In this document: one piece after another, positions 7,494-61,225 of the stretch
How positions within the stretch are numbered: position 1 is the first letter of the stretch
Layout of the letters: each line of letters starts with the position of its first letter
Assembly (NCBI GenBank): GCA_963804165.1
Contig: CAWDPO010000024.1
Coordinates: 96,001 to 160,000, forward strand
DNA: 64,000 nucleotides
From: an uncultured delta proteobacterium
GTDB taxonomy: Bacteria; Desulfobacterota; Binatia; UBA9968
Direction of reading: 5' to 3'
The notes under the pieces: model-generated
What the model saw: the letters and a program-made list of their open reading frames with translations, nothing else
What the model was told of the DNA's origin: nothing
Database searches by the model: none
Translations under genes and position numbers: made by a program

Positions 7494-7497
7494 GATG

Positions 7498-14594: not shown

Positions 14595-14595
14595 T

Positions 14596-16450: not shown

Positions 16451-16540
16451 TTTGTTCTCCGAGCATCGATGCGTCGCAAAGGAACCGATCAGCGCGCTCT
16501 AGCCAAACGCGCGCGCCGATCTGCCCGCCGTGCTCTCGTC

Positions 16541-38804: not shown

Positions 38805-38827
38805 TGAAGATTAACGATTCTTACCCA

Positions 38828-38974
38828 GCGCGGCAGAGCCGCAACCAAAGGAGCACAAGAAGGACTCACCGCAGAGGCACAGAGGTCGCAGAGTTAGGAG
38901 TTTGACTTGATAAAATTCTTTCTCGGCGTACTCCGCGTCTCCGCGGTAAATTCTCTCTGGTCCGCTCCGGTTGC
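38828..38974. repeat. Composite intergenic palindromic element (9-mer CGCAGAG-type arms nested in a GCGGC...GCCGCAACC/GGTTGC REP-like frame)
   Basis: caccgcagaggcacagaggtcgcagag (38867-38893) pairs with ctcggcgtactccgcgtctccgcggt (38922-38947); flanked by gcgcggcagagccgcaacc and ggttgc. Confidence 0.65.
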
Positions 38975-39002
38975 ATCTTGTTAGAAGTATTTCCGTAATC
39001 CC

Positions 39003-40145: not shown

Positions 40146-40170
40146 GTCTGTTGGCAGCAGGCAAAGACTT

Positions 40171-41647
40171 TTAGACGTTTCTCTTTATCACCCGCAATTG
40201 CTCCACTCTTTTTCTTTCGAGCTGCGCCACATTCGCCAGCAGAGCGAGGAAAGTGAACGCCAGCATAGTTTCAATCTGCCCACCGAACAGAGCACTGTTG
40301 TTCCACCAGATCAGCAGATAGATGAGTCCCAGCGCATAGAATTGCGCCCACACTCTATAAGGAGATTCAGCGGGTATATTCTTGACGATTCGGGCGACGC
40401 TCTTTCCCGTGCGAAAGCAGACCCAGACAAACAGGGCGAATCCGATGATCCCCAACTCCGCCAGGAACTGGATGTACATATTGTGAAGTGAGGTTACCGG
40501 CTGTTACAAAAAAAGCATTGCTATGCAGATGAGAGAACGTCTCGGTCACAGCCGTCAGCAATTGAGGGGAAGTGATAACCGCCTGGGATGTAGTAGCCTG
40601 CCATCCCACACCTACCAAGGGGTTGGCTAAAAAAATCCAAAGTCCCGCATAGGCGATCATAAGGCGCTCGGCGAACGAGCCACCGCTAAGATCAGCGGAG
40701 CCTGACACGTCGCCCTGTCGGAAATTGAAGATAGCCAGTGCAGCAGCCGTCATCATGATTGTACTAACCACAGCCCACCTCAATAGGTCGAATCGTCGGG
40801 ATCGCATGCTTGCGAAGTACACGGTGACAGTTACCGCGACGGCAAATGCAGCAGTAGCCGTTTTAGCCAAGTAAAGGCCCAATAAGCCCGACTGCAAGGG
40901 AGACAATCCATGCCATCGACCGGCGGTTCCCGTCTCTCTCAATGAGGGCATATAATACCAATAAACCTGACACGAGCCCTAAAGGGCCGATACCGATCAC
41001 ACCACCAGATCGGACTGCAAGCGCTCCGGCTGCCGTGAGTCCCCAGACGAGCGCGGCCCCGACAGCTACAGTGGCCATAGAAAAAAAAATCAGAGCTTTG
41101 TTAAAGAATTGCATGTCCCAATCTATCCCTTAAAGTAACGCAAAGTACTGGGACAAATGATGCGGTTAGGAGCAACCGCATGTAGGACGCTATAGAAGCG
41201 CCGATGAAAATCCGGCGCGGAAATACGCACTAAGACCACAGACAGACCGATGTATAAGAGAAAGACCAACAGTGGCGTAAATAGTTCGCGGACCTCGGTT
41301 AAAATGGCAGTGCGGCGTCCGATAACACTCCGGGCCAGAACCATGCCGATGAACAAGCAAAACACTCCATCGATGTAACGGAGCGACAATGGGCCAACTT
41401 CCATTAACGGCGAAAGCAATGATGGACTGACAAAGCCAAAGCCAATAAACGCAGCCGCACCGAGTACCGGACGCATAGCCATGAGCAAGAGAACGGGTAG
41501 AATGAGAGGTGCTAGTGCTAGCCAGAAGTTTTTTCCACTCGTAGCTTGCTCCACAACGATCGGTGTTAGCAAACCTATGGCAATGCCGAACAGCCCGAAG
41601 TGAACGATGGCATTGCTTTCTCTGCTTACGAAGTTGCCCTTGTGCAT
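40171..41647 (-). CDS. O-antigen ligase/polymerase (Wzy_C) family membrane protein, frameshifted
   Basis: Many TM segments; SFAERL, NPLVGVGW, H-N-x-Y-I-Q-FLAELGIIG motif spread over four frames. Confidence 0.75.
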
Positions 41648-41673
41648 TTGTTACTCCGGTTAACGTGCGAACT

Positions 41674-42841
41674 TTAAATACTTAACCGTGTAAGTATTTC
41701 ACTAGCCCTCTGCTCCCAAGTGTAACTTTGAACATCCCTCGTCGCCTGTTTCGCTAGTCTTTGTGCTACAGCATTATTCTCGAGAAGAGAGTGAATTCCC
41801 TGTGCTAGAGCGCTGGGGTCGTCCGGTTTTACCAGCCACGCGCTTTCTCCATGCCGGATAACTTCGCGATGGGACGGCAAATCACTTGCAACTATCGGCA
41901 CCCCTGCCGCCATATATTCGAAAAGCTTCAGAGGCGAAGTATAATATCTGGAGTGGACGGATTTCATTGAATGTGGCAGCGCCAGCACATCCGCGGCCTT
42001 TTGAAACAAGAGAGCATCCGAATGCGACTTGAATCCTGTTAACGTTACATTATTCCCGTCAACTTCCCGGAGCACTCGTTGCAACGGCTCCTTCGTCTGG
42101 TGGCGCGTCACCCACAATAACAATACCAATACCGTTCAGCATCGGGGCTGCTCTTACTAGAACTATCAACACCCTTCTCACCGGAAAGCTTCCCGGTGTA
42201 AACAACCAGCGGCTTATCCAAAGGTAGGCCAAGTCTTTGTCTTGCTTCTTTTTTAGTCATTGAGCAGCTCAACGTGTCGAGTTCTACGCCGTCGTGGAGC
42301 GTCAACAGCTTATCAGAGGGGACGTGCACTTGGCTTTCCAGATCTGCTCGCAAGTGCTCTGTAACCGCCAGCACAAGTTTAACGCTGGTTTGCTGAGATG
42401 CCCAACGGATGAATATCCGCTCGTGTCCCTTCGGCATCTCATGTATCTCAAGTACCGTAGGCAAGCCTCGTCGTCCTAGCCACCAGGCAATCATAGGCTC
42501 TCTGACGAAAAAAGAGATCGACCTTCGATTTTGAGATCAAATGACTCACTATTCCGCACCAGACAAAAGCATGAAGAAACGAAGGGAGAAGATCTTAACT
42601 TCTCCAATTTAAAACTTTTGCTTATAGGAAAAACCGCTCGCGGCAACGGTTTCAGCATGATCTGTGGCTTCGAATCATCGAAGCGAAGCGGATCATTTTT
42701 GGCGTAAGGGGAAGGTATGTAATATAAGGTGGTTTGAAAACCTAGCTTTGCAAATGCATGTCCCATGGAAATGGTTTGCAATCCATTTGCCTGCCGGGTC
42801 GGTAACCAGCCGGTTCTTAAAATCACTACAGACCCTGCCAT
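41674..42841 (-). CDS. GT4 glycosyltransferase, frameshifted
   Basis: ANGLQT, EIHE, VYTGKL..KGV, TSPLKLFEYMAAGVPIVASDLP. Confidence 0.85.
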
Positions 42842-42889
42842 TCCTGTTGCCTCAGAACTAAAGCATCGTCTCTCTGGTAAGCTCGAGAG

Positions 42890-43976
42890 TTACCGCGATT
42901 TTTTCTCTACTAACCGGGCGAAAAGGTCGACCAGTTTCGTGGCAAGACCGTCGAGGCTGTGCAGCTTCATCACCTGTTCCCTCAGATACTGTCCAATGCG
43001 TTGCGTTTCGGTATCGGTCAAAGATAATGCCCAGCGCAGGCGGGCAGCGAGACTCTCCGCGTCTCCGTGGCGGAAAAGCAGCAGGTCCGCGTACCTGCCG
43101 AATGTATCTCGAAAGCCTTCATTTGCAGCTACACAAAGCTTCCCGCAACTCATCGCTTCCCACGCGACTTTGTCGCCGAAACCGGTCGGCGTCAGATTCA
43201 CATAGACCGCGCAACGCCGGTACCAGAACGGGAGCTTTTCCATGGAAACCGCGGGCTCGAACTTAACAATATTTTCCAATCCTAACTCGCTAATCTGTTG
43301 ATGAAGCAATCGGACATAGGACTCGTCACGAGGAGCGGCAGGCCCTCCGACAATCACGACTCGGAAAAGTTGGTCAGAAGTTTGTCGCAAGAGCCAAGCT
43401 GCCTTAAGGAGGGTCGGGTGATCTTTGACCGGCGACAGCCGGCCTACACAAAGGATCATAGGGTGGAGCTCCGGGGATGTCTCCCCAGTCGGGTGAGAAC
43501 AGCTCTGTGTCAATGCCCTGCCCAATCGCAATCAATTTGTCGCGCTTATACGGATAAGCTGTCGGGAAGCTCGCAACCATGTGAGTCGAGAAACGAGTGA
43601 GCCACCTTTAAAATCGGCGTCACTGCTCGGATGTGCATACCAGGTCACGATCGGGATCCTTTTAGGTCTCAATACGGGTGCCGCCAGTACCGTAAAAAGC
43701 GTTATCATATGCGAGAAGCATGCATCGATACGGTCTTCCCGTAAAACGCGAAAAAGCAACCGATAGAACTCGAAAGCTCGCCGCGGCTCACTGTAGCCTT
43801 TCTCCTTACCCACTGAGTAAACTCGCACGTTGCCTGGCACCTCGAGTCGGCCCACTCGCATGGTGATGACATGGATGAACTCCACCCGCTTCGCCAGGGC
43901 ACCGAATCCAGCGCGTCGTAAAGCCCAGAAGCGGGTCATCGGCATCAGTTGCCAGGTTAAACAGTAGAATGCGCAT
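42890..43976 (-). CDS. GT4 glycosyltransferase, frameshifted
   Basis: MRILLFNLATDADDP start; WYAH; VGRLSPVKDH; GFGDKVAWEAMSCG. Confidence 0.83.
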
Positions 43977-45153
43977 GTTGGCTCCCCTCGTCAGCCAGCA
44001 GACCCCGAGCTATAGCAAACAACTCGCGATAGCCTCCCATGTAGGTTTCCGTCGAAAAAATTTGCTCGGCGGCTACACGAGCCCGTTTTCCCATCGCCTG
44101 CGCTTCCAAGGGATTTTCCAATAGCCAGTGGATTTTCTCAGCGAGAGACAACGCATCACCCGGGGGCACGAGGAAACCCGTAACCCCATCTTCGATCATG
44201 TCTGGAATGCCGCCGACCGAGCTGCCGATAACCGGGGTTCCGCTTGCCATGGCTTCAAAGACCACACGCCCCAGTCCTTCCGACACGGAAGGCAAGACAA
44301 AGACGCTCGCTCGCCGCATCCACGTTGCCAACTCAGCTTGTGACATGGCACCGATGAACTGCACACGCCCATCCACACCCAGTCGCTTGACCTGTTCTTT
44401 CAACTCGGCGGCGTAGGTCTTGTTTTCCTCATGTCCCACTAGGAGCAAACGGGTTTGAAGGAAATCCTTCGCAACGTGGGCGAAGGCGTCAATGAGGTGA
44501 TGCACACCTTTGCGTGGTATGAGGACACCGGTGTAAAGAATGTCCGGACTCCGAATATCCTCATTGACGCCGGCGGCAAGAAAAGCGTCCATATCCGTCC
44601 AAGCGGGAAATTGAACGATGGGCCGTCCCGGCATCCAATTCTCCAGTTGGCGTCGAGTGGAGTCAGAAATAGTCCGAAACACGTCAGCATGTTTGATAGC
44701 GAAATGGGCTGCTCGCCGCATGAGTGAGCGATACAGCCGTGGCAGCAGCACACGGCGCTGCATAAATAAGCTTTCTTCAAAATCACCGTGGCTTTCTACG
44801 ATAAGCACGACCTTGTGTCCGAACCAATGGCAAATTTTCTTTGCCAAGGCAGCGGCAAAACCTTCGTACGGGCTTTGGGCCACAAGAACCTGCACTCCAT
44901 GCCGCGCAACAACCCACAAGGCGAGGGGGACCCCCAACAAAAGCATCTCGGCATATCTAAACGGCGCAAAGCGCAATGTCGGCAGAAGATAAAACTTTGC
45001 GTGTTCGGTAAACCAACGGGGCCCCAACTCTCCAGAGAAACCGATGACGAAGATTTCGCCCAAAGACTTTATGGACCTAAACTTCTTCTCATTGGTTGCG
45101 TCGAGCGGACTGCTGTAACGGGCGCCGCCAAGAAAGCAAACTTTACTACTCAT
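43957..45153 (-). CDS. GT4 glycosyltransferase
   Basis: LYTGVLIPRKGV, LPSVSEGLGRVVFEAMASGTPVI. Confidence 0.92.
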   Translation of the reverse strand: MSSKVCFLGGARYSSPLDATNEKKFRSIKSLGEIFVIGFSGELGPRWFTEHAKFYLLPTLRFAPFRYAEMLLLGVPLALWVVARHGVQVLVAQSPYEGFAAALAKKICHWFGHKVVLIVESHGDFEESLFMQRRVLLPRLYRSLMRRAAHFAIKHADVFRTISDSTRRQLENWMPGRPIVQFPAWTDMDAFLAAGVNEDIRSPDILYTGVLIPRKGVHHLIDAFAHVAKDFLQTRLLLVGHEENKTYAAELKEQVKRLGVDGRVQFIGAMSQAELATWMRRASVFVLPSVSEGLGRVVFEAMASGTPVIGSSVGGIPDMIEDGVTGFLVPPGDALSLAEKIHWLLENPLEAQAMGKRARVAAEQIFSTETYMGGYRELFAIARGLLADEGSQHAHSTV

Positions 45154-45201
45154 ACATCACCGATCAGACGGAGCTCCTTTGTCGGCAGCCGGTACACACC
45201 C

Positions 45202-46234
45202 TCATCTTGCGAGATTCCATGAGCGACGGCGTGCCAAGCCTGTCAGTATCGCTGCAGGGGACAAAAGCCGATAATTGAGCTGCAGCGCGCGTTTGAATAG
45301 CAACAAAAACTCCAGACCGCTGAATCGCAACGCTTGCAATGCCAAACATCCCATTTTCTTTGCGGCATCCCATGAGATTTCATTCAGCTCTTCAGATGCC
45401 AGTGCGTGCTGCGACACGAAACGATAGTACAATTTTTCGAGCAGGGCCGCGGTCAAATGAATTTCTCCTAAACTCTCCAACTTCGTCCCGCGCAATCCAA
45501 CCACGGCCTCGATGGAAGTGTTCTCCTGCAAAAAGTCGCTTATGAATGGAGCCAGCACTTTGTTCGGAGCCTCCCGGTACTCTCGGCTAAGACGTTTGGA
45601 GATGTTTTTACCCGAGATTCTATATTTGAAGAGGATCTCCGGTGTGTTGCTAAATTCAGTGATCGCGCTCGCCCGCAACCAGAGGTCCCAATCGTCGGCA
45701 TGAACTGCCTCGGCTCGATAGAAATTGACTTTCTCGAGTATTTCGCGACGCATCAAAACCGTCGGATGGATCACACACACCCTGAAAAAGAGATTCCATT
45801 TTAGCACGTTCGGGTTTGGAGGCAGGCACCACTCCCCTCTCAGTGAACCACGCTCGTCAATTCTATTGGCCCATGTCCCGACAATTCCGATCTCCTGATG
45901 TTTTTCAAGAAACTCGAGCTGTCTCGCAAACCGATGAGGCAAGCTAATGTCGTCCGCATCCATCCGGGCGATGAACTGACCCTGCGCCATCCGACAACCT
46001 CGGTTTAACGCACCGATCACGCCCTGGTTTTCTTGCCGATACACTCTTACCCGGCCATCGGCTTTCGCGTATTTCTCGAGAATACTGGCGGTAGTCGTCC
46101 GTGGATCCGTCATCAACGATGATGAACTCGAAGTCTCGAAACGTCTGGTCTAGGATGCTGCATACAGCCTCATCGAGAAACGCCGCCGCATTGAATGCCG
46201 GCATCACGACGCTAACAGTAGGAGTAGGAGTCAT
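45202..46234 (-). CDS. GT2 glycosyltransferase, frameshift near 46095
   Basis: [41 protein letters not shown]. Confidence 0.88.
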
Positions 46235-46339
46235 ACCCGTTAACTCGTCTTTAAGTATCGAGCTATCGCAAGAAGAAACGGTGGCAGCCATCCCGATGGT
46301 GGCTGGCGCGGCAATCCAACCGCAATAGAGTTGACGTCA

Positions 46340-47455
46340 TTATCGAGGGATATAGAGACCGTTTCCGTTTTGCCCAACAACGACTTCCTGCGCCGTCTCC
46401 ACTTCGCTACGGAGATAGCCGATAAATCTTTCTACAACAGCGCAAATGGCATGGGTGGGCACTGTGCCGAGCGGCTGTAGTCTTCCCCGCCGTTGCATAT
46501 CGAGATACTCTCTGCTCTGACGCACCGCCTCTTCTTCTGCTAGACGATAAAGCACCGTTGCGCTCGGACAATAAAAAGGCAGCCAATTGGCTGTGCCGTG
46601 ATGAGCGGCAACAATTACGCGCGCGCGGAGAAAGCAAGCCAGATGGGTAATTCCCGTATCGGTGCCGATGAAAAACTCAGCCAATTGTATGAAAGCCGCG
46701 ATTTCCCGCGCGGAACAACCTATCGCGTTGATGATTCTTTCTTTTTGTTCGATTCCATTCCTGATTTCTTCAAGCCAATTTCTTTCGGCGCTACTGCCGG
46801 AAAGAACCACATGCATTTCAGGATTTCGTCTAAGCACGTGCTCGATCACCTCTCGCGCAGCTTGAACGGTAAAAGCTCGTTTAGGATTTGAACCACCTGG
46901 ATGAAAAACTATATAAGGCCTGTGATCCAGGCCGCACGCCTGAATGGGTTTAAAATCGGCAGTGATCGTTAAGTTGGGAACTTGAACGAGGACGGGAATC
47001 CCGAGCGCACGGACGATATTTTGAATGTTCTCGCTGTAAAGTTGATTGGTATCGTAAACGAGTGTTTTGGAATAGAGCGCCTTGCAGAGCGGCCCTTTAT
47101 CTTGAAATCCTATAAACTCGGTTCCAGAGGATCGGCTCATCAACCATCCGAGTGCCTTTATCCTAAAAGGAATTTTACCGGGGGTGGGTTGGATAATGAC
47201 CAGGTTAGGGTGTCGCATCCTTTTGACCATCTGCCCCCAACCGCTGCGCCGCGAAACTTCCATTGCCGAAATATACGGATATGCCCCGATGAGGCCCCGC
47301 AGAAAATTCAAGTTTTTCGGCACGACGATGGTGCTGTGATCGACGTACCCGGATTTCTGAAGTAATTCCGCAAGGAAAATAAACATCAAGAAATCGCCGA
47401 TAGACCCGTTTTGAAAAAGAATGGCGGTCTTGAGTTTCTTCGCTGATCGATTCAT
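46340..47455 (-). CDS. GT9 (heptosyltransferase-like) glycosyltransferase
   Basis: SIGDFLM, FHPGGS..KR, FIGTDTGITHLA. Confidence 0.85.
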   Translation of the reverse strand: MNRSAKKLKTAILFQNGSIGDFLMFIFLAELLQKSGYVDHSTIVVPKNLNFLRGLIGAYPYISAMEVSRRSGWGQMVKRMRHPNLVIIQPTPGKIPFRIKALGWLMSRSSGTEFIGFQDKGPLCKALYSKTLVYDTNQLYSENIQNIVRALGIPVLVQVPNLTITADFKPIQACGLDHRPYIVFHPGGSNPKRAFTVQAAREVIEHVLRRNPEMHVVLSGSSAERNWLEEIRNGIEQKERIINAIGCSAREIAAFIQLAEFFIGTDTGITHLACFLRARVIVAAHHGTANWLPFYCPSATVLYRLAEEEAVRQSREYLDMQRRGRLQPLGTVPTHAICAVVERFIGYLRSEVETAQEVVVGQNGNGLYIPR

Positions 47456-47505: not shown

Positions 47506-48486
47506 TCAAAACCTTCCTGAGAGCACTCTTCCTCGCGTTGCCGAGTGCACAAGGGCCTGGCCTTCTCGTAACCCGGTATAACGCCCAACCTCCTGGACAA
47601 TTATGCTCGGTAAGCCAACCGTCAACGTGCCAACTCGTTGTCTCCACGTTGCTCCATACAGCAATCCGCGCAAAGCTTGCTTACACACTCGCCAAAGAAC
47701 TTCGCCGTGAGACGGAACCGGGAGTTCCAGAAAATTAGCGAAGCCCACATACTCCCGATGATTGCGGTACCAAATTTGCCGAAGCGTCTCATGATGATAA
47801 TGCCATACCAATGCTTGACCGTCGTGAACAATAGTGTATCCAGCCTTTAACACTCGCCACGCCCACTCCTTATCCTCTGTATAGGGAAGTAACTCATCAA
47901 ACGCGTAGAGCCGCCAAAGATCCGCCCGAATCGCCGCATTGCCATTGCACAATCCAAAATTGTAGTTGCGCAGAAACATCTCTAAGTCCTGCCGCACGAC
48001 ACGTTCTCTAGGCTGACTCATCTTGTTCCGGGTCTCTTTACCCCACACAGCCGCAACATTGGCGTCATCGAAATGACTTATTAAGCATCCAAGCCAATTC
48101 GCGGTCAGGGGAACGGCATGCGCACTGACAAAAACCAGGAATTCTCCCTGGGCGGCGCTACAGCCGATATTCAATGCCCTGCCGAAAGTAAATTCTTCCG
48201 GCCGAATCTCGATAATTTTGAGCGGAAACTTTCTGGCAATTTCGAGGGTTCGATCCGTTGATCCAGAATCCACAAGGATGACTTCAACGTCACGAACTGT
48301 CTGTTCATAGACGGCGGTCAACACCTCCCCGATTAAAGCCTCTTCGTTCTTGGCTCTGATGATTATGGAAGCTACAGGACTTCGACTTACTTTTACCTGG
48401 TCTTTATCTCGAAATGTCTGACCCACAATACTGCTAACCGCCTCGTCCAAATGAGCCGCAGCGCCCAGTGTCTTGATCATTTTCAT
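47506..48486 (-). CDS. GT2-fold glycosyltransferase, DxD replaced by SAH
   Basis: SIIIRAKNEE, VDSGSTD, FTFGRALNIG, FVSAHAVP, NGNAAIR, EDKEWA; ATGA overlap with the SDR gene. Confidence 0.88.
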   Translation of the reverse strand: MKMIKTLGAAAHLDEAVSSIVGQTFRDKDQVKVSRSPVASIIIRAKNEEALIGEVLTAVYEQTVRDVEVILVDSGSTDRTLEIARKFPLKIIEIRPEEFTFGRALNIGCSAAQGEFLVFVSAHAVPLTANWLGCLISHFDDANVAAVWGKETRNKMSQPRERVVRQDLEMFLRNYNFGLCNGNAAIRADLWRLYAFDELLPYTEDKEWAWRVLKAGYTIVHDGQALVWHYHHETLRQIWYRNHREYVGFANFLELPVPSHGEVLWRVCKQALRGLLYGATWRQRVGTLTVGLPSIIVQEVGRYTGLREGQALVHSATRGRVLSGRF

Positions 48487-49232
48487 TCCGTGCTCAATTT
48501 CACCGTCGCTCCCCCGTCGATGACTAACGCTTGCCCGGTCATAAAGGACGAGCGCTCATCGTCAGCGAGAAAGAGGACCGCCTGCGCAATTTCCTCTGGA
48601 GTTCCGACACGCCCCATGAGATGTCGCGCGGCAAGTTGCTCTGTCAGCTCACGCACGTTGCCACTCTCGCCCCTTCCCCGATTCAGGCCTGCGTGCAACA
48701 TAGGAGTGTTTACGGCACCGGGAAGCACGGCGTTGACGCGGATGTGATCCGGTGCCAATTCAATGGCCAGCGCCCGCGTTAAAGCTACGACGGCGCCTTT
48801 ACTCGCAGCATACGCGGCGATGTTAGCTGAAGTGGCAACTGCGTGTACTGAACTGACGTTCACGATGGCACCGCCGTGGCCGCGCATGAGCGGATAGGCG
48901 TGACGGACGGACAGATAGACCGAGCGTACGTTGGACGCCATCACGGCGTCCCACTCATCAGGCGTGGTCTCGATCAGCGGCTTGCAGATCTGGATAGCCG
49001 CGTTATTGACCAGAGCGTCAATGCGCCCTTCACCCTTCGCCACTTCGGCAAAGATCTGTTGCGACGCAGCGGTATCGGAAAGGTCAGCATGGATGAAATG
49101 ATGAATACCGGGTAGCGAATCGACTTGACGCCGATCAACGCCAATGACGCGCCAACCGGCCTTGTCAAATGTTTGTGCAGTAGCGCTGCCGATCCCGCCG
49201 GACACTCCGGTTATCAGGACCACGTTGCTCAC
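48483..49232 (-). CDS. Short-chain dehydrogenase/reductase (classical SDR)
   Basis: TGVSGGIG, VNNAA, NVSSVH, YAASKG, RVNAVLPG. Confidence 0.93.
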   Translation of the reverse strand: MSNVVLITGVSGGIGSATAQTFDKAGWRVIGVDRRQVDSLPGIHHFIHADLSDTAASQQIFAEVAKGEGRIDALVNNAAIQICKPLIETTPDEWDAVMASNVRSVYLSVRHAYPLMRGHGGAIVNVSSVHAVATSANIAAYAASKGAVVALTRALAIELAPDHIRVNAVLPGAVNTPMLHAGLNRGRGESGNVRELTEQLAARHLMGRVGTPEEIAQAVLFLADDERSSFMTGQALVIDGGATVKLSTE

Positions 49233-50173
49233 GAGCCCGATCCGCCCAGTCCGTCCAGCAAGTTACGAATGGCCAGTTCGTTGACGCGCATCACGGCTTC
49301 AATCGTGTTTGAGCTGTTGTGCGAACCGAAGATACAGTTATCCAGTTCCCGCAATGGACTGCTCAGGGGAAGCGGCTCTTCCTCAAATACATCCAGGGCA
49401 GCCCCCGCTACTTTTCCTTGTCCGATCGCCTGAGCTAGAGCCCTCTCGTCAATGAGCTTTCCCCGAGCCGTGTTAATGACATAAACGCCGGTCTTCATCC
49501 GGCTGAACTCCCGTTCTCCGAGCATGTGATAGTTCAAAGGCGTGAGATTACAGTTCAGCGAGATGAAATCAGCAACCGCCAGAAGCTCGTCCAGAGTTAC
49601 CATCCGGACCTTAGTTTCCTGCGCAAGGGCTGCCGGAACCGAAGCAACATCGTGTCCGACGCAGGTCATTCCGATAACGTCTGCGCGTCTGACAACGGCC
49701 TGTCCGATACTGCCCACACCGATCACCCCGAGTGTTTTGCCGTGCAACGAAGTACCCCGAATCCTTCTCCAATCTCCGCTACGCACTCGTTGATTCAACT
49801 CATGCAGCTTTCGAGAAAGTAGAATCATATATCCGAGAACGACATCGGCTACTTCCTCGGCAAAAGCGTTGGGAGTATTGCACACCAGGATACCCAGTCG
49901 TTTGGCGGCGCACTGGTCGATCGCATCCACGCCGATGCCCCATTTCGAAATGACTTTCAGACGCTTTGCCTTTTCCAGCACATTGGCGGTGAAGGGGTCA
50001 TCACCCGCGATTACGCCATCGAACCGGTCAACGATATCGAGCAGTTCCTGCTCCGTCAGCTGCTGGACAACCGCAGGCAACTCGATTTCAATGCCGCGCT
50101 CTTCGAACAGGGAACGGTACGGCTCAATCGTTTCCTGCAGTTGGCGACAGCTAATGAGCACCCGGTATTTCAC
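49229..50173 (-). CDS. D-isomer-specific 2-hydroxyacid dehydrogenase (phosphoglycerate dehydrogenase-like, no ACT domain)
   Basis: KWGIGVDAID, GVIGVGSIG, INTARG, ALDVFEEEP, GSHN. Confidence 0.92.
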   Translation of the reverse strand: MKYRVLISCRQLQETIEPYRSLFEERGIEIELPAVVQQLTEQELLDIVDRFDGVIAGDDPFTANVLEKAKRLKVISKWGIGVDAIDQCAAKRLGILVCNTPNAFAEEVADVVLGYMILLSRKLHELNQRVRSGDWRRIRGTSLHGKTLGVIGVGSIGQAVVRRADVIGMTCVGHDVASVPAALAQETKVRMVTLDELLAVADFISLNCNLTPLNYHMLGEREFSRMKTGVYVINTARGKLIDERALAQAIGQGKVAGAALDVFEEEPLPLSSPLRELDNCIFGSHNSSNTIEAVMRVNELAIRNLLDGLGGSGS

Positions 50174-50850
50174 GACGATTTCTCCCGTTCCCGATACAGA
50201 AACTCGGCGACCCGGAAGTCCTGTTCTTCATCGATATCCCAGCTCTCGATTGAATCGATCTCGAACATGAGCGGCCGTTCGCCGATTCGGTTATGCCGTT
50301 TCTCCAGGTTAGAGCGGGTGAAGAGGTACAGACACGAGTTCTCCTCGTAGATCGGCGGAAGATCTTGGGTGCGTAACAGAACGGCGGGGTTGTGATTGAC
50401 AGCTCTCGCCAAGCCATCCCACAAACGGCTTTGAACTCTCGTAACCGAGAAGAGTGAATCATGGATGGGATACTGATGCAGAAATGACTCGATGGCACGA
50501 GAGATCGTCTCGGATCGCAGCAAGGGATTGGTGCTGTGGGTTTGCAAGTAATAGTCGGCGCTGACCTGCTGCACGTCGTAGAGCAATACGTCGTTCATGG
50601 GCACGCTGCCGCCGCGAAGCGACTCCGGCCGCTCGATCAGTCGGACCTGAGGAAACTGACGGCGCGCATCTTCCATGATGACGGGACTGTCCGTGTTGAT
50701 CAGGACCTGAGAGATCATTGGGCAATCCAGGAGGCTTCGGACGATGCGGCGATAGAGAGGCTCGCCGGCGAAAGCACGATAGTTCTTTCCCGGCACGCGC
50801 TCGCTTTCATGCCGCATAGGAACCAAAGCCGCAACAGAGGCCTGCACCAT
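50170..50850 (-). CDS. Acylneuraminate/Kdo-type cytidylyltransferase (CMP-ulosonate synthetase family)
   Basis: LVPMRHESERVPGKN (PxRxxSxRxxxKN), INTDS, RPESL, HSTNPL, YEENS, DIDEEQDF; ATG at 50850. Confidence 0.9.
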   Translation of the reverse strand: MVQASVAALVPMRHESERVPGKNYRAFAGEPLYRRIVRSLLDCPMISQVLINTDSPVIMEDARRQFPQVRLIERPESLRGGSVPMNDVLLYDVQQVSADYYLQTHSTNPLLRSETISRAIESFLHQYPIHDSLFSVTRVQSRLWDGLARAVNHNPAVLLRTQDLPPIYEENSCLYLFTRSNLEKRHNRIGERPLMFEIDSIESWDIDEEQDFRVAEFLYREREKSS

Positions 50851-50866
50851 TCGCGATCCTCTTTCT

Positions 50867-51511
50867 TCAATCCGTCGGCAACGCACGGAGAACCGCACGT
50901 ACCGGAGCTCCATCGGACCCCATCAGTCGGATAGGCAGACAGATCAGCTCGTATGAGCCCGGCTCCACGGCCGCCAGGTTTAAGCCCTCGACGATGATGA
51001 CGCCCGCTTTCATCAGGATTTGATGTGTCAGCGGATTGTCTTCGTAGCGTTGGACGGAGAGATAATCGATACCGACTAGGCGGATTCCCCGCTCCACAAC
51101 CCAACGCGCCGCATCAGCGGAAAGTGCGACGTAATCCTTTCTGAACTCGGTCACGCCAGCCGCCCAGAGGTCCGAGTTGCGAGTTTTTAAAAGGAGCCGT
51201 TGAATACCAGACGCCAGGTTCAGGTCGGCCAGTTCGTTCGCTGTGATCACACTGGCCTCTGGCAGATAAGCAACTATGGCAGGACCAATGAGTACGTCCA
51301 GAGACATCTCATCGACAGTAAAGCCATCGTTGAGAAAGTGCCAAGGAGCATCCACATGGGTCCCCATGTGCACATCGCAGTCCAGTCGCGATACGTTCGC
51401 CCTGTCTCCCGCTTCCAGCGACATCGTGCGAGTCAATCGAAACCCGACGCTATCGGGCCAGGTCGGCATGTCCGGCTTTAGCGGCAGGGAGATATCAATG
51501 ATGGCCGACAA
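50867..51511 (-). CDS. Cyclase-family (kynurenine formamidase-like) metal hydrolase
   Basis: HMGTHVDAPWH (HxGTHxDxPxH), GIDYLS, IVEGL, DGAPVRA. Confidence 0.9.
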   Translation of the reverse strand: MSAIIDISLPLKPDMPTWPDSVGFRLTRTMSLEAGDRANVSRLDCDVHMGTHVDAPWHFLNDGFTVDEMSLDVLIGPAIVAYLPEASVITANELADLNLASGIQRLLLKTRNSDLWAAGVTEFRKDYVALSADAARWVVERGIRLVGIDYLSVQRYEDNPLTHQILMKAGVIIVEGLNLAAVEPGSYELICLPIRLMGSDGAPVRAVLRALPTD

Positions 51512-51513
51512 GC

Positions 51514-52479
51514 TTAGTCTCCCTTAACGTCCACATATTGAACGCGTCGTTCAGGTTCGTGCGATGGTTCCGGATGAGCACGCATTCTCCCGTTGGGGTA
51601 GTAGAACCGCTGCCTGAGCTGAGTGCCGATGGGACCACTTTGAGAAAAACCGCGATAGGTTCCCCAGAACTGCATGAAGCGGAACGAAAAAATGTTCGCC
51701 AGGTTGCGCGACAGCATTCCGTCCTGCCAGGCATGGTAACAGTCAGTCGCGGAGTTGGCAGAGAATAGGCGGGCGAAGTTCCACAAGTTGAAACGCTCGT
51801 GCGGAAAGACGTGCTTTAGAGCAATCGCTTCCCGCCGGTAACGGTTGTAAACACTCGTTGAAGTTTCGTCATGGACATGCACGATCTCGGCGTCGGCAAT
51901 GTAACTGATCTTGTGGCCTAGCTGCATGGCGCGCTTTGCCCAGTCAAGGTCTTCCAGACCCGTAAGGGTTTCGTCGTAGGGCAGCCGTTCCCATAGCGAA
52001 CGGCGGATTGCCGCGTTGGCATTGTTGCAGAAAGGATGATCCTGCTGCGGATTCGACTCCTTCGGGAACCATTTGGCGAAGATCTCATGCTCTGAAAACT
52101 TCGACGATTCGTTCCCCCTTTGCTTTCCGTAAACCAACGCGACTTGCGGGTTCGCAAAGGCAGCTATCAGACGCTCCAGCCAGTCCTTGTACACCGGATA
52201 GACGTGGGCGCTGGCGATCACGACGAGCTCTGCTTTGGCCGCCTCGCAACCTATATTGAGAGAACGGCCGAAGGAAAACTCCTCGGGACGAATGGAAAGG
52301 ATCTTAACCGGAAATCGTGATGCGACCGCAACCGTGGCATCGGTTGAACCCGAATCGACTACGATGATTTCCACATCTTTAATCGTTTGCTGCATGATCC
52401 CACTGAGGAGGCGACCGATGTGTTTCTCCTCGTTGTAACAGCGAATCACAATACTGCACAAAGCTTCCGCGGCCTTCAC
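51514..52479 (-). CDS. GT2-fold glycosyltransferase, DxD replaced by SAH
   Basis: SIVIRCYNEE, VDSGSTD, FSFGRSLNIG, IASAHVYP, NNANAAIR, GLEDLDWA. Confidence 0.9.
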   Translation of the reverse strand: MKAAEALCSIVIRCYNEEKHIGRLLSGIMQQTIKDVEIIVVDSGSTDATVAVASRFPVKILSIRPEEFSFGRSLNIGCEAAKAELVVIASAHVYPVYKDWLERLIAAFANPQVALVYGKQRGNESSKFSEHEIFAKWFPKESNPQQDHPFCNNANAAIRRSLWERLPYDETLTGLEDLDWAKRAMQLGHKISYIADAEIVHVHDETSTSVYNRYRREAIALKHVFPHERFNLWNFARLFSANSATDCYHAWQDGMLSRNLANIFSFRFMQFWGTYRGFSQSGPIGTQLRQRFYYPNGRMRAHPEPSHEPERRVQYVDVKGD

Positions 52480-53446
52480 GATAGCTCCCCCCGCGTGTTT
52501 CCTTGAAAAAGCAATCCCACCGTTTGATAGAGAAACCCGAACCAGTGAGCTATGAACTGCACTTCACCGAAGCGGCTCTCCTCTTTAATCATATTCCGTG
52601 CGAGCGTTCTCGGATGGACACACTGCGCGAGCAACCTCCGGTTAAGCTGCAGGGTTTGCTTCAGGAGCTGAGCGCGACCGGAGCTTCGGGCCATGAGAAT
52701 CGCTTCGGAACGGCCGTTCCCGTAGGCGCGATTATAAAAGTACTGTTTGGTCATACGATCCACAGGGACGTGATGCCGGACCACCGCCCGTGGCGTGTAG
52801 AAGACCAGCTTTCCCAGCTTGTGGATTCGCTCTTGAATCTCGGTGTCTTCATTGCCGAGCAAGAGCTGTCCTCGCCGTCCCCAGGTCCGTCGCAAAAGGA
52901 TCCGATCTCTGAGAACACTCTCTTCCTGAAGGAAAAATTCGTCCCAATGACTCTTTCCGGCCATTTCAGAGGTCGTTCGTCATCTCCCCATTCCACCAGG
53001 CTTAGACTGCGAAGCATCTTGTCTTGCAGCCATGCCGGTCGCTCTCCATCCCATATGGGCAAGACTTTCCCGCCGACCACCCAGGCATCCGCAACTTTAT
53101 CGTAGACGTCCAGCAGACAGCTAAGCCAATTTGGCTCGGCCACCGCGTCGTCATCCAGGAACGCTACGATGTCCGCCCGGGCCTTCCGGATACCCGTATT
53201 CCGCGCGTGCGAGAGCCCCTGCCGACTTTCCAAGACATAGTGAAGATGAAAACCGGCATCTCCTTGGTGTTTCCGGACAATCTCGGCCGTCCCATCCCTT
53301 GAGTTATTGTCGACAACGATGACTTCGCATTCTTCAGCCGAGAGCGTTTGATTGCGAAGGCTGTCGATGGCAGCCGGTAGAGTATCGGGACGCCGATAAG
53401 TGCAAATGACAGCGGACACGCGTGGGTTGCTATTCTTGATGGCCAT
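52476..53446 (-). CDS. GT2 glycosyltransferase, frameshift near 52895
   Basis: VICTYRR, VVDNNS, GLSHARN, AFLDDDA, GTNFSF, GNEDTE. Confidence 0.88.
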
Positions 53447-53652
53447 TGAATATCACCTTTACGAGTAACTAAAGCCTCGCGGCTACCAAACGCTTTAAGA
53501 AACTTTTAGCATCCGTGGTGCCGATGATTGAAAGGTTGAGAGGCCTTTATCCTCCTTGAACATCGATCCCACCTCAAGCACGCGGAGAGGCTCGGTCGCG
53601 AACACAGAAGACACGTGCTGTAAAGCCAGTAAAATCGTCTGCCCTCGAAAAT

Positions 53653-54866
53653 TCATAAGCTCAAGAACTCGGCTCCATTGCCATTGGTCTGTTTCGAAAC
53701 CATTACCGGAGATGCGGTTCTACCACATTGGGTTACAACGTCTTCATTTGCTGGGATTAAATCGGCCCATCTAAGAAACTGACCGGTCAAGGCCATCCCA
53801 CGCTCAAAACTGAATGCCGGTTCGTAACCAAGCAGACGGCGTGCTTTATCAATCTTCACTTGGCAACGAGTTCGGTAGAGCTTTAATTTCGATTCATCGG
53901 GAGGCCGGACGGTCTGCGCCTTCTTGGCGAGAAGCTTCAACACTGTAGACTGGATAAGTCCGTTGACATCGTGCGGCAAAAATCCGCGAGACTTTTCGTA
54001 AGCTCTCCGTAAAATCCGAGACTCCATCGCTGCGTCAATCACACGGCACTGGAAGGATGATAGGGTAGACGATACTCGCTCAGGCACATCCGATGAAATA
54101 GATGCCGTGCCATTTCTCCCTAACAACTTCTCAAAAGCAGCGTAAAATTCCCTCCACGTAATCGCGTGTCGGACCTGAAATCAGAAACGCCTCACCGACC
54201 GCATGCGGCTCGGTGCCGGCCAAAATCAACGCATCTACAACATCATCAATGTAGACGGGGTTGCAGACGCCATCACCTCCATCGACCAGTACCAAGCGTC
54301 CGTTTTTAATTTGCTCGACTACAGAAAGCGTCCAGGGTCGCGAAAAAGGGCCGTAAACAATGGTCGGCTGCACGACAACCAAAGGGAGTGCGTGCTGCCG
54401 ATGATAGGTCCACAGCAGCTCCTCTGCAGCAAACTTGGTTTGCGCGTAGATGTCAGCACCGGGAGATTTCGGAGAGCTCTCATCCAAAGTCTCCTGTAGC
54501 GGCCAGCCGTAGACATCAACCGTACTCACGTGCACGAGCCGAGCCCCGGTTTTCAAAGCAGCCTTGGCGATATTTTCCGTGCCGCCAACAGCGACGTGCT
54601 GGCGATTCTTACTGGGAGCCTTTGAAACCATAGGCACAGTGAAAAATCACCTCACAGCCTTTAGTCGCCTCGGTTACCGCGGAGCTGTCCGTAATATCCC
54701 CTCGCATCATTTCTAAGTCGAAACGAGCGATACGCGACGCGTGACTAAAGTCGCGCACCAGCACTCGAACATTCGCGTGTTGCTCGAGGACCAACTTCTC
54801 CACCAAACGCCCACCGATAAAGCCCGTAGCGCCGGTGACTAACACCTGCTTACCGCTCAGCTTCAT
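53653..54866 (-). CDS. NAD-dependent epimerase/dehydratase, frameshifted
   Basis: VLVTGATGFIG, FHCA, HVSTVDVYG, YAQTK, QPTIVYGP, KARRLLGYEP. Confidence 0.87.
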
Positions 54867-55901
54867 AGGACTGCTTCTTTCTCTTGGTAAGGAGTAACCC
54901 ATGGTAAATCCAGTTGTCGTCTTGTCGAATAGCATTTCTCAATCAAAGCAACAGAGCGGCAGGCTTCTGTCCCTGGTACTGCCACGGGCCGCTCGCCCCG
55001 AATTGCCGCCAACCAATCTTCCAGCTGAGGTCGAAAGAGATCGGAAAAACTTTGCGCAACTCCCTCCTTGGAGGCGTCGGCGACGCCTTTGCCCGACAGA
55101 CCGACACCTTTGTCTGGACAGTACAAGGCAACCCAATTTTTGCGAAGGTCAACCTCGATGGTAGCGTGCTCGCCGGTGATAATCGCTGTATTACGCAGCT
55201 TTCGTGTCCGGCTCAGCTCTACCACGCCTTTAGCGCCCGACTGCATCGCCAAATAGAGCTCACAATCAGCCTCCACACCCCCATAGCTGTCATCGTAGTA
55301 TTCCAGACCAGCCACTTCGCCTAACCACCACAACACCAAGTCAAGGGTATGCGCACCCGTATCCGCCAAAACGCCGCCACCTGCGGTCTTTCGTCGAAAG
55401 AAAAAATCAGATTGAACAGGCCAGTCGTAGACGCTGCCCTCGCGCACGTCGAATGCCTTAATTCGCCCAAGAACCCCTTGCTGCAACGCCCCGGAGACAA
55501 ACCGAGCACTATCCAAGAACCGTCGCATCAGACCCACAGCCAGAATAACCCCATCTCTCTTCTGCAGCCTCCAACATTGCTTGGCACTCCGCGGAAGACA
55601 TCGCCATCGGCTTTTCCACCAAGACATGGATGCCTCCCTTCATCAGCTCGCAACTGACGGGAGCATGCAAATGATGAGGCAACGCTATGATAGCTCCGTC
55701 GGCACGTTGCAAAGCCTCCCGATAATCGTCTGATACAGCGGGTACGCCGTGAACATCGGCCAATTGCTTGGCGCGATCCAGGTTGCTATCCACGAGAAGC
55801 GTAATCTCGCAGTTCGGCGTATCTACTGCAGCCGGCAAATGGCCCCGCTCCGCAGCCGCCCCACATCCGATAATGGCGACTCTAACGGTTCGTTGCGTCA
55901 T
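54863..55901 (-). CDS. Gfo/Idh/MocA oxidoreductase, frameshift near 55555
   Basis: VAIIGCGA, HVLVEKPMA, GGGVLADTGAH. Confidence 0.88.
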
Positions 55902-55923
55902 GAATTAGATGGAGACCTTTCCT

Positions 55924-55957
55924 TTCATGTCTTTGTTCGCTTCATGTCTTTGTTCGC
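55924..55957. repeat. Perfect 17-bp tandem duplication
   Basis: TTCATGTCTTTGTTCGC x2 (55924-55940, 55941-55957). Confidence 0.9.
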
Positions 55958-56041
55958 CAAAGTAAGCTTTGTTCAAAGTCTCGTAAACTTTCTCTTTGCG
56001 CATAGCCAAAAGAGTAACCCTCCGTCTCAATTTCCCCGATT

Positions 56042-56932
56042 TCAGACCACTCCTTCCACCACCCTTCGAAATTCAACGCGAGGAAACACTTCCAATTGGC
56101 CACCGACGGTCGCGTTGTAAATGACCCCGCCATGAGATTTGAAGAAGCGTTCGGCTTCTCTGTAACCTGTTTCCATCCGTTCGACTTGAGGATCGTGCCA
56201 GCGATACCCCGGTCCAAAATAATCTGGGTGAAAATGATTGAGATCGGCAGAGCGCGAAGTAATGACGATGCCTTTTACCTCGTCCACCTTTGCGGGCGGT
56301 TGATAATTATGATCGAAACCGATCAGGTACACCTCGCGAATGCCGAGATAGTACGCCAGTTGCAGGTTCAGAAAGCTCACTGTTCCACCCCAATAAGCAC
56401 ACCTCTCAAAGGCGGGAGAAAACTGCGGAAAACTGGGTGGACGCCGAATGAAATTGACATAGATTATTTCTTTGTCTCGGCACAGCCATTGTGAGAGATC
56501 GGAGGGAACAATCTTGGTTGTGCCGCCGTATTGGCAGATGGCTGCGGCCCGGTCCTCGGCCACGAGCGAGTCTTCCACAGTGTAAAAGGTAGGGCGAAAC
56601 CCGTTCTCCTGGGTCAACAGAAAAATCCCGTTCGAACCGATGGTAATTTCACCGGCAAGCTTCGTAACATCCGTCTGCCGCAAGCTCGGTCCATTTCCAA
56701 TAACAAAGGCGCGACGACCCGCATACCGGTTCTTCAAGCGCAGCAATTTGCGCTCATTATCCGTCAGTCCGACGCCTAGACCCGCCGCTCCAAAGCGAAC
56801 CTTTTGCAACGCGCGACGGCAACGGCCCGGAGCCATAAGCGACTTGACTACAGGGCGAGCCGCGCGTAGAAACCTTCTCGCTGGCGCAGTCGTTTCTAGT
56901 TTGGCCTCAGCAGTTGTCAACACTTTTACCAC
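56042..56932 (-). CDS. DUF115/Maf (GT42 sialyltransferase-like fold) protein
   Basis: AFVIGNGPSL, IGSN, GTVS..LQLAYYLG..EVYLIGFD, NHF, IYNAT. Confidence 0.8.
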   Translation of the reverse strand: MVKVLTTAEAKLETTAPARRFLRAARPVVKSLMAPGRCRRALQKVRFGAAGLGVGLTDNERKLLRLKNRYAGRRAFVIGNGPSLRQTDVTKLAGEITIGSNGIFLLTQENGFRPTFYTVEDSLVAEDRAAAICQYGGTTKIVPSDLSQWLCRDKEIIYVNFIRRPPSFPQFSPAFERCAYWGGTVSFLNLQLAYYLGIREVYLIGFDHNYQPPAKVDEVKGIVITSRSADLNHFHPDYFGPGYRWHDPQVERMETGYREAERFFKSHGGVIYNATVGGQLEVFPRVEFRRVVEGVV

Positions 56933-57704
56933 CGTCGGCGCAGGAAAGTGATCCCGTCTCCGTCACTGGTCGCCATGCTGAACACATCAAAGTCACCCGA
57001 TTGGGCTATCTCTTGCATAAGCCGTCTGAGCGCCATGATCTTGATGGTGTCGTGATACAGCATCATGCCTCGTGGCGACAACTTTTTAGAGAAGGTCTCG
57101 TAATCGTGTCGAGCTCCATCATAAGAATGATCTCCATCAATGAAGATTAGTTCACTTTCAGGCAATGGACTCGACCAGAGACGTGTCCTGGGAGCTACCA
57201 TGATAAAAACTCGTCTAAATGCGATAGCTTCGCCTGCTCTAAATGATCGCGCGTTAGGTCTATATTATACTGATCGATTTCCACGCAATGGAGGTGTCCG
57301 GAATCGCCGTTGTCGTGCAACGCCTGAGCCATGGAGACCGTCGAGGCGCCGTTGTAGGTCCCAACTTCAATAACGTTCCGTGGACAGCGCAAACGCATGA
57401 CGGAATAGAGTGCATGACCGGTCTCGCGCTCCGCACTCCACATAACCCGCTGCGGGCGCTCACCAGAATACGTTGAGTCTGTCCGACATCGCTGGGCTAC
57501 CTCGTTCACATGGGGGTGAGCGGGCAAAAAATCTTTGCCGTCGAAAAACCAAGCGAAGACATCCCCCAAGCTAACATTACTTATGGGCCGCGGCAGTGGA
57601 GACTCGCGATAAGTGTAGTCGTCCGCGTAAAGCTGTGGGGTTTTCGAAACGCGTTTAGGTTCCTTCTGGATCATCCAATTGTACGTATTCTTAAGAGCCT
57701 GCAT
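56926..57704 (-). CDS. Class I SAM-dependent methyltransferase (Methyltransf_24-like), frameshift near 57205
   Basis: VIEVGTYNGAS, LIFIDGDHSY, YHD. Confidence 0.82.
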
Positions 57705-61223: not shown

Positions 61224-61225
61224 CG

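Follow-up and report, generated by a model that had tools for sequence, protein, structure and literature searches.

The window analysed here is a stretch of 64,000 nucleotides from an uncultured delta proteobacterium of the phylum Desulfobacterota (lineage Binatia, UBA9968; contig CAWDPO010000024.1 of GenBank assembly GCA_963804165.1). At positions 47506-52479 it carries a cassette of six genes, which encode, in reading order, a glycosyltransferase of family 2 (GT2a), a cyclase-family metal hydrolase, a NeuA/CMAS-type cytidylyltransferase (CMPT), a D-2-hydroxyacid dehydrogenase (HADH), an oxidoreductase of the SDR family and a second glycosyltransferase of family 2 (GT2b). In the interpretation that we prefer, and to which we give a probability of about one half, this cassette is one copy of a horizontally spread and uncharacterised glycosylation module, and the surface-glycan locus in which it is located belongs to the ABC-transporter type and has partly decayed. 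The module would probably produce a 2-ulosonic acid that carries no amino group, activate it with cytidine monophosphate (CMP) without any contribution of the condensing synthases NeuB or KdsA, and attach it to the glycan.

We infer the roles of the individual enzymes from sequence, gene context and structural models. HADH would oxidise C2 of an aldonic-type sugar acid to a 2-oxo acid, which would cyclise to the ulosonate, and CMPT would then join the anomeric hydroxyl to CMP. The SDR could make the sugar acid from an aldose, or it could tailor the sugar before or after activation in the manner of ElaC and EpaB, which are described below. Transfer would fall to a Maf/sialyltransferase-like protein encoded close to the cassette and/or to GT2a, which lacks a DXD motif, and the cyclase-type metal hydrolase may work with GT2a on an amide or ester, taking no step between the two dehydrogenases. 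A preliminary description of this DNA had proposed an oxidative, NeuB/KdsA-independent route to a CMP-ulosonate; the core of that idea survives the tests that were run, but the cyclase step, the role of GT2b and the choice of transferase have to be revised.

To our knowledge, all CMP-activated ulosonic acids known at present (Kdo, sialic, legionaminic and pseudaminic acids, and Kdn) are built by synthases that condense phosphoenolpyruvate. If our interpretation is correct, the module represents a new way to make CMP-ulosonate surface sugars and probably also an undescribed sugar. No paper describing the cassette was found in a full-text literature search (supplements excluded), and the sole mention of a hex-2-ulosonic acid glycan in the searched literature was a reference-list entry that concerns the Escherichia coli K3 antigen.

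Conservation of the module and its fusions

Relatives of CMPT are numerous, with at least 8000 in a protein sequence search and 342 in a scan with one genome per prokaryotic species, the best 80 of which were retained as loci. The genes of these loci were obtained with a simple open reading frame (ORF) caller and clustered with minimum values of 30% identity and 60% length coverage, and the cluster representatives were annotated. HADH is found near CMPT in 51 of the 80 loci, SDR in 42, GT2a in 26 and the cyclase gene in 21, and an MptE-like (DUF115) gene related to Maf, situated outside the cassette, follows SDR in 28. Among the 49 loci with full flanks, that is, with at least 3 kb upstream and at least 4 kb downstream, the numbers of loci with each partner within 6 kb of CMPT are 33 for HADH, 31 for SDR, 22 for the MptE-like gene, 18 for GT2a and 14 for the cyclase gene; 14 of these loci have no partner gene at all. 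The core of the module is CMPT-HADH-SDR, usually followed by the Maf/sialyltransferase-like gene.

The order GT2a-cyclase-CMPT-HADH-SDR, with or without the MptE-like gene at its end, is identical in cyanobacteria, Deltaproteobacteria, Bacteroidota and metagenome-assembled genomes (MAGs) of Chlorobiaceae and Eisenbacteria. Because the same order recurs in so many of the 80 related loci, the arrangement of the cassette is not due to chance. The preliminary description had treated all six genes as one unit. Five of them are indeed conserved in this way, but GT2b has no separate counterpart in the other loci. The description had also asked whether the gene families co-occur across phyla in the absence of NeuB and KdsA; the unit does recur across phyla, and 14 carrier genomes have neither synthase (see below). 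The Geitlerinema sp. P-1104 genome has two complete GT2a-cyclase-CMPT-HADH-SDR copies (L014 and L017), which are located on different contigs.

In the phylum of the window, a CMPT match at E<=1e-30 is present in 12 of 401 sampled genomes including its own, the other eleven having 36-71% identity. Such a spread across the phylum points to a patchy, transfer-like distribution. Five viral contigs (L084-L088), four of them labelled giant-virus MAGs, also contain CMPT relatives with 42-47% identity. Homologues of both HADH and SDR are located within about 1.1 kb in four of the five; in the fifth, the SDR gene is adjacent and a fragment of HADH is seen at the edge of the locus.

Loci in which CMPT stands alone are of the Saprospiraceae type, and four of the five such genomes tested carry HADH elsewhere, with 42-44% identity compared with 28-35% for its paralogues. 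In the Saprospiraceae (L021, L039 and others; 13 loci) the CMPT gene is preceded by a conserved Ham1 gene and a gene for a protein of 340-510 amino acids that belongs to no known family, in a housekeeping-like setting with SUI1 and EamA genes. The 377-amino-acid protein that precedes CMPT there matches no Pfam or NCBIfam family, and its neighbours in the protein atlas are just 'hypothetical' and TPR-like.

Natural fusions repeat the operon order and would link all five proteins functionally. When fusion classes were assigned by blast against the proteins of the window, the 120 long CMPT relatives listed of the 125 found at E<=1e-30 comprised 70 CMPT-SDR, 18 CMPT-HADH, 13 GT2a/CMPT, one CMPT-HADH-SDR and one CMPT-MptE-like protein. 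The partners in the other 17 are various and include sulfotransferase, methyltransferase, HMGL-like and HpcH aldolase domains and, in one case, a GT29 sialyltransferase domain. Long relatives of the cyclase protein (n=18) comprise seven GT2a-cyclase fusions and one cyclase-CMPT fusion, and none is fused to SDR or HADH. Several of the CMPT fusions, in which CMPT is combined with HADH and/or SDR, come from eukaryote records (P0134, P0138, P0141, P0154, P0232 and P0237). The sources are a brown alga, records of a eukaryote protein collection, an annelid, and Triparma, the last with a triple fusion CMPT-HADH-SDR of 786 amino acids.

The module is therefore widespread, being present in bacteria, on giant-virus contigs and among eukaryotic proteins. 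Relatives of CMPT routinely carry the label 'CMP-N-acetylneuraminic acid synthetase', and genome surveys of the capacity for sialic acid are therefore likely to count them wrongly. Culturable carriers exist in Lyngbya sp. PCC 8106, Microcoleus sp. K1-B1, Geitlerinema sp. P-1104 and Catalinimonas sp. 4WD22.

Predicted sugar-acid chemistry and the origin of the substrate

All six cassette proteins pass their Pfam cut-offs and none of the six reaches an NCBIfam equivalog cut-off; therefore, they are regarded as clear members of their families and not as orthologues of named enzymes. CMPT can be aligned in full length with both CMP-sialate and CMP-Kdn synthetases. Its best match in the PDB is the CMP-Kdn synthetase PpNeuA (9t4z), and the catalytic Arg, Lys and Asp-x-Asp align with those of 9t4z, 1qwj, 6ifd and 1eyr. 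Among 84 aligned sequences Lys22, Gln162 and Asp207 are present in all, Arg13 and Asp205 in 83 and Arg188 in 81; counted by motif, the loop Arg/Lys, the Gln-Asp stretch and Asp-x-Asp are kept in 82-84 sequences and the Arg preceding the Gln-Asp stretch in 74. That the catalytic residues of CMP-ulosonate synthetases are kept supports the earlier assignment of CMPT as a NeuA/KdsB-type enzyme that would activate an ulosonate. Models of named relatives fit it poorly, the score being 75 bits for PseF (TIGR03584, cut-off 205.7) and at most 31 bits for the KdsB models (cut-offs 155-281).

On the sugar side Gln103, Arg160, Gln162, Tyr175 and Arg188 are kept. Arg188 aligns with the Kdn gatekeeper of PpNeuA, Arg196, which according to PMC12934254 gates Kdn against Neu5Ac. 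The scanned ORFs of the window and the cluster representatives of the loci include no member of an aminotransferase or acetyltransferase family. The likeness of CMPT to a CMP-Kdn synthetase, the presence of Arg188 and the lack of these two families among the scanned ORFs suggest a hydroxylated, amino-free ulosonic acid, and CMPT is probably the CMP-ulosonate synthetase for such an acid. With the CMP-Kdn/CMP-sialic acid pathway, which consists of a NeuB-type synthase, a CMAS such as PpNeuA of Prymnesium parvum and a sialyltransferase, the module shares the cytidylyltransferase fold, the catalytic residues, the Kdn arginine and a sialyltransferase-/Maf-like gene in the neighbourhood. In the module, however, a 2-hydroxyacid dehydrogenase and an SDR take the place of the synthase and the phosphatase as partners of CMPT, and there is no NeuB here.

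In HADH the Arg/Glu/His triad and an NAD-type Asp are conserved (51 sequences), and the triad aligns with that of phosphoglycerate dehydrogenase (PGDH) structures. Members of the D-2-hydroxyacid dehydrogenase family are known to convert aldonic acids into 2-keto acids and back, and their site of action is a hydroxyl or oxo group at C2 beside a free carboxylate. With triad and Asp kept, the formation of a 2-oxo acid is the most natural role for HADH, and in view of its chemistry the only fitting group here would be C2 of an open-chain acid before CMP activation. The PDB matches include the PGDH 1wwk (176 bits), McyI and the 2-ketogluconate reductase 9m0t (149 bits), and the PGDH model TIGR01327 gives 230.6 bits against a cut-off of 454. 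HADH thus belongs to the same family and has the same triad as enzymes of aldonate and 2-ketoaldonate metabolism (9m0t, GhrB with 178 bits, PdxB with 99 bits), but it is not an orthologue of these, as all equivalogs remain below their cut-offs; furthermore, the direction proposed for it is oxidative and its Asp is of the NAD type.

A conserved Gly-Asp-Asp occupies in the HADH family the place where human PHGDH has Arg-Ser (the 'IVRSATK' stretch). The arginine of this stretch binds the phosphate of the substrate in PHGDH, and its replacement argues against a phosphorylated HADH substrate such as 3-phosphoglycerate. The preliminary claim that HADH oxidises C2 to give the 2-ulosonate fits the triad, the NAD-type Asp and the adjacency to CMPT; against it counts that the nearest relatives are of the PGDH type.

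That similarity is also the starting point of a different proposal, which we consider very unlikely, namely that the product is no glycosyl donor and that a small, glycerate-like hydroxy or oxo acid, linked to CMP or CDP, would serve for phosphodiester decoration of the glycan with the MptE-like protein as kinase. It would agree with this that the archaeal pterin pyrophosphokinase 8sd5 is among the fold matches of the MptE-like protein (E=6e-5). On the other hand, the alignment of CMPT with CMP-ulosonate synthetases spans the entire protein, with the residues on the sugar side kept, HADH is without the Arg-Ser stretch of PHGDH, and a GT29 sialyltransferase domain is part of one CMPT relative. 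We know of no cytidylyltransferase of the CMPT family that makes CDP-linked acids. According to SugarBase, ulosonic acids have to date been seen only as CMP-activated forms.

The SDR is by sequence a classical NAD-type enzyme, with TGxxxGxG, Asp33 (NAD-type) and Ser/Tyr/Lys conserved. Its best PDB match, 3vtz, was deposited as a glucose 1-dehydrogenase (157 bits), and with the glucose 1-dehydrogenase subfamily NF005559 it scores 197 bits, just under the cut-off of 215. The assignment of the SDR as an aldose 1-dehydrogenase in the preliminary description has this PDB match and sub-threshold NCBIfam matches as its sole basis. The enzyme may either supply the sugar acid or tailor the (CMP-)sugar.

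Where, then, does the sugar acid come from? NeuB has no match anywhere in the genome of the window (7.5 Mb in 46 contigs, 80.9% complete), which extends to the genome what had been reported for the window, and all matches to DAHP_synth_1, KdsA, DHDPS and HpcH are on other contigs. A canonical KdsB (185 bits) lies about 2 kb from KdsA (407 bits) on contig 38, so that Kdo has its own activating enzyme in this genome. Carrier genomes were defined as the 50 whose loci carry CMPT with HADH, and they were searched for NeuB at E<=1e-20 and for KdsA with a model cut-off of 314 bits. NeuB is missing from 20 of them. Six of these 20 exceed the KdsA cut-off, one with a split KdsA, and so does the genome of the window itself, which was included in the search. 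The best KdsA-model scores of the other 14 are just 51-135 bits, and the three sequences inspected are DAHP synthases. Nine of the 14 are labelled cyanobacteria, and three of these nine are isolates (Lyngbya sp. PCC 8106, Microcoleus sp. K1-B1 and Geitlerinema sp. P-1104). Three cyanobacterial carriers gave weak matches to NeuB, which were rejected, the sequences being DAHP synthases. By locus type, NeuB occurs in five of 20 carriers with the cyclase gene and in 25 of 30 without it, a difference that largely tracks taxonomy (cyanobacteria versus Chloroflexota) and to which we therefore attach no functional meaning.

Eight loci of Chloroflexota (L034, L045, L047, L055, L056, L058, L075 and L078) have a conventional module immediately ahead of CMPT-HADH-SDR-MptE-like. 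Its genes encode an SDR, a cytidylyltransferase of about 410 amino acids to which a KdsC/Kdn-9-P-phosphatase-like domain is fused, NeuB, and a KpsC/KpsS-like protein of 545 amino acids, and the loci continue with GT2 and PMT_2-type membrane transferases. A complete conventional pathway thus adjoins CMPT-HADH-SDR without any obvious feed into it, and the fact that NeuB has its own cytidylyltransferase there points to two separate pathways.

The main rival explanation, which we hold to be rather unlikely, assumes that the ulosonate is made elsewhere (as Kdo here, as a NeuB product in the Chloroflexota), is activated by CMPT and is then epimerised or redox-tailored by HADH and SDR before its transfer. 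Precedents for a cytidylyltransferase working with two NAD(P) oxidoreductases exist in Acinetobacter baumannii, where, according to the two sources, C8 is epimerised at the CMP level: ElaA (Gfo/Idh/MocA), ElaB (CTP-transferase) and ElaC (SDR) give 8-epi-legionaminic acid (PMC13656337), and EpaA (CTP_transf_3 fused to an aldo-keto reductase) and EpaB (SDR) give 8-epi-pseudaminic acid (PMC12053666). As in the module, one oxidoreductase of these systems is an SDR, and EpaA is likewise a fusion protein. In addition, a frameshifted GFO/IDH/MocA gene is located just upstream of the cassette and has an intact counterpart in L001, the syntenic reference locus, which comes from a MAG labelled Candidatus Eisenbacteria.

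Several observations that favour such tailoring weigh at the same time against the direct oxidation that we prefer. The window's own genome contains KdsA and KdsB, which makes Kdo a possible substrate here. Of the 50 carriers 30 have NeuB, and in 12 of the 80 loci it lies within 6 kb of CMPT (in at least nine of these 12 beside its own HAD-fused cytidylyltransferase), which leaves room for a tie to nonulosonic acids. The commonest fusion by far, CMPT-SDR (70/120), fits an SDR acting beside the activation step, as in the Ela and Epa systems, better than one acting two steps upstream. Three further points count against our interpretation: HADH is nearest to phosphoglycerate dehydrogenases and not to known 2-ketoaldonate reductases; two CMPT relatives, P0143 and P0235, are fused to pyruvate-aldolase-type domains (HMGL-like with 50% and HpcH-type with 37% identity), so some relatives may use an aldolase after all; and since most carriers are MAGs, the absence of a gene from them is uncertain.

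What speaks against tailoring is, first, that the 14 carriers without NeuB and without a KdsA-level match have no known precursor to offer, and that their cassette proteins are mostly about 55-75% identical to those of the window. The ElaABC-type system requires a nonulosonic acid pathway in the same genome, and no NeuB is found here or in 20 of the 50 carriers. Second, HADH would have no obvious site on a CMP-ulosonate, because C2 is a ketal there; the second oxidoreductase of the A. baumannii systems is not a D-2-hydroxyacid dehydrogenase but a Gfo/Idh/MocA protein or an aldo-keto reductase. Third, NeuB in the Chloroflexota is already provided with a cytidylyltransferase fused to a HAD phosphatase.

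Candidate transferases and the cyclase-family protein

The MptE-like protein is the likeliest candidate for the transferase of the module, judging by its position and its modelled fold. The gene is intact, the genome of the window contains no other PF01973 match, and the copy in L001 is 68% identical to it. The PDB sequence match is Maf (5mu5, E=2.7e-4), and a structural model of the protein (pLDDT 86) retrieves first Maf 5mu5 (E=9.6e-7, probability 1.00, TM-score 0.46), then archaeal HPPK, and then GT29/GT42 sialyltransferases, with TM-scores that are modest throughout (0.25-0.46). Maf proteins are flagellin nonulosonic-acid transferases of the same Pfam family, and 5mu5 is the best match by both sequence and fold. 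However, the MptE-like proteins have about 270-300 residues compared with 632-666 of a Maf chain and would correspond to its central domain only. No flagellin context was seen in the scanned parts of the window and the loci.

GT2a, which is 85% identical to its L001 copy, has the GT-A fold and the Pfam match but no DXD motif. At the position of this motif all 27 aligned GT2a/GT2b sequences have Ser-Ala-His (S90, A91 and H92 invariant or nearly so), and the GT2a subfamily has in addition an invariant His-x-His-x-Glu further on in the same alignment. The nearest PDB folds to its model (pLDDT 89) are PcManGT, TarP, TarS and ppGalNAc-T2; only generic GT-A enzymes were retrieved by this fold search, which does not reveal the donor type. 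GT2b is 37% identical to GT2a, and its best tblastn matches in other loci land on the GT2a gene, which means that no separate GT2b orthologue exists in them; GT2b is a local duplicate of GT2a specific to the window. The two flanking GT2 proteins were the transferases in the preliminary description. GT2a, as part of the conserved unit, is still a candidate, but GT2b stands outside that unit, and the Maf-like gene had been overlooked.

In a wider sense the module may define a new class of glycan building blocks: non-amino 2-ulosonic acids formed by direct NAD-dependent oxidation, activated with CMP and moved by a short Maf-like enzyme together with a DXD-less GT2 subfamily, which would be the first users of CMP-sugars in the GT2 family. 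This class would be found in cyanobacteria, Chloroflexota, Bacteroidota, giant-virus contigs and several eukaryotic lineages. We put this generalisation forward tentatively, as the odds are on balance unfavourable to it.

The cyclase-family protein is an accessory partner of GT2a and not of the dehydrogenases, because just 14 of the loci with full flanks have it (n=49) and because it occurs next to GT2a or in one protein with it and is never fused to SDR or HADH. In these loci its gene is missing from 35, that of HADH from 16 and that of SDR from 18. Its metal motif HxGTHxDxPxH is conserved (22 sequences) and is common to it and KynB (4cz1, 4co9), of which 4cz1 is its best PDB match (132 bits). 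Unlike KynB it stays below the arylformamidase cut-off (161.5 bits with TIGR03035, cut-off 223), has no context of tryptophan catabolism and has a GT2 as its fusion partner or neighbour.

These findings bear most directly on the complete linear chain of the preliminary description, in which the SDR oxidises an aldose to a lactone that is opened by the cyclase protein, HADH produces the 2-ulosonate, CMPT activates it and the two GT2 proteins transfer it. HADH and CMPT have the same roles in this chain as in our interpretation and fit equally well, the best PDB match and the near-threshold NF005559 score of the SDR agree with its first step, and the 13 GT2a-CMPT fusions agree with its last. For the lactonase step one could cite a weak family-level match of the cyclase protein to isatin hydrolase, an enzyme that opens a ring to give an alpha-keto acid. 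This match amounts to 24 bits, compared with 132 bits for the formamidases, which are the nearest characterised relatives. Moreover, 35 of the 49 full-flank loci do without the cyclase gene, its protein is fused to GT2a (7/18) or CMPT (1/18) and never to either dehydrogenase, GT2b is outside the conserved unit, and the Maf-like transferase is left out. A lactonase acting between SDR and HADH is thus without support, and the chain as a whole is improbable.

The cassette in its glycan locus

The coordinates of the cassette and of its neighbours are given in table 1. The order of the six genes, their overlaps of 4 bp (at 48483-48486, 49229-49232 and 50170-50173) and their gaps agree with the preliminary description in ORF coordinates and Pfam assignments. 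GT2a and the cyclase gene are separated by 2 bp (51512-51513), and the cyclase gene and CMPT by 16 bp if CMPT starts with the ATG at 50850; this start is backed by homologues of 226 amino acids with 100% query coverage and by the alignment with L001.

Table 1. Genes of the cassette and of the adjoining part of the glycan locus (positions in the window)
Feature	Position	Strand	Evidence
GT2b	47506-48486	minus	Pfam Glycos_transf_2, 85 bits
SDR	48483-49232	minus	Pfam adh_short_C2, 202 bits
HADH, D-2-hydroxyacid dehydrogenase	49229-50173	minus	Pfam 2-Hacid_dh_C, 193 bits; second Pfam domain, 84 bits
CMPT, NeuA/CMAS-type cytidylyltransferase	50170-50850 (longer ORF to 50913)	minus	Pfam CTP_transf_3, 101 bits (cut-off 22.6)
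Cyclase-family, KynB-like metal hydrolase	50867-51511	minus	Pfam Cyclase, 88 bits
GT2a, soluble protein of a GT-A glycosyltransferase family	51514-52479	minus	Pfam Glycos_transf_2, 83 bits
Frameshifted GT2	52479-53440	minus	Pfam; frame switches relative to L001
Frameshifted gene of a sugar epimerase/dehydratase family	53740-55016	minus	Pfam; frame switches relative to L001
Frameshifted GFO/IDH/MocA oxidoreductase	54866-55901	minus	Pfam; frame switches relative to L001, where the counterpart is intact
Maf/MptE-like protein (DUF115), candidate CMP-sugar transferase	56042-56932	minus	Pfam MptE-like, 44.7 bits (cut-off 34.6)
Frame-broken gene	56929-57494		Frame switches relative to L001
ABC transporter ATPase and ABC-2 permease (Wzt/Wzm-like)	59928-61846	minus	Pfam ABC_tran and ABC2_membrane

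From about 31.9 kb to the end of the window almost all scanned ORFs are glycan genes on the minus strand. They encode transferases of the GT1/GT4, GT2, GT9 and GT61-like families, a Wzy_C fragment, FkbM-type and other methyltransferases, proteins of sugar epimerase families, a GFO/IDH/MocA oxidoreductase and two ABC-transporter components. Upstream of GT2a the genes for GT2, the epimerase-family protein, GFO/IDH/MocA and the MptE-like protein follow in the same order as in L001. The five genes that the cassette shares with L001 (GT2a, cyclase, CMPT, HADH and SDR) are each in one frame relative to it, with 78-85% identity. In contrast, the approximately 5 kb upstream (52.5-57.5 kb), apart from the MptE-like gene, align with it only piecewise, with about six switches of frame, and the glycosyltransferase genes downstream are split as well, so that split or truncated genes extend across 37671-47455 and 52479-57494. 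The earlier impression of an intact cassette of six genes among broken neighbours is therefore correct. The frame breaks of the neighbours are not located at long homopolymers, and they are either errors of assembly or sequencing or real decay.

Two groups of genes at the other end of the window may be mentioned. An alpha-glucan cluster on the minus strand (4136-18523) comprises genes for a maltokinase-cap protein, an alpha-amylase/TreS-like protein, GlgE, an isoamylase-like protein, a DUF3459 amylase and a GlgB-like protein; several of its ORFs overlap, which suggests frameshifts there too. A CdaA-type diadenylate cyclase is encoded at 2941-4122.

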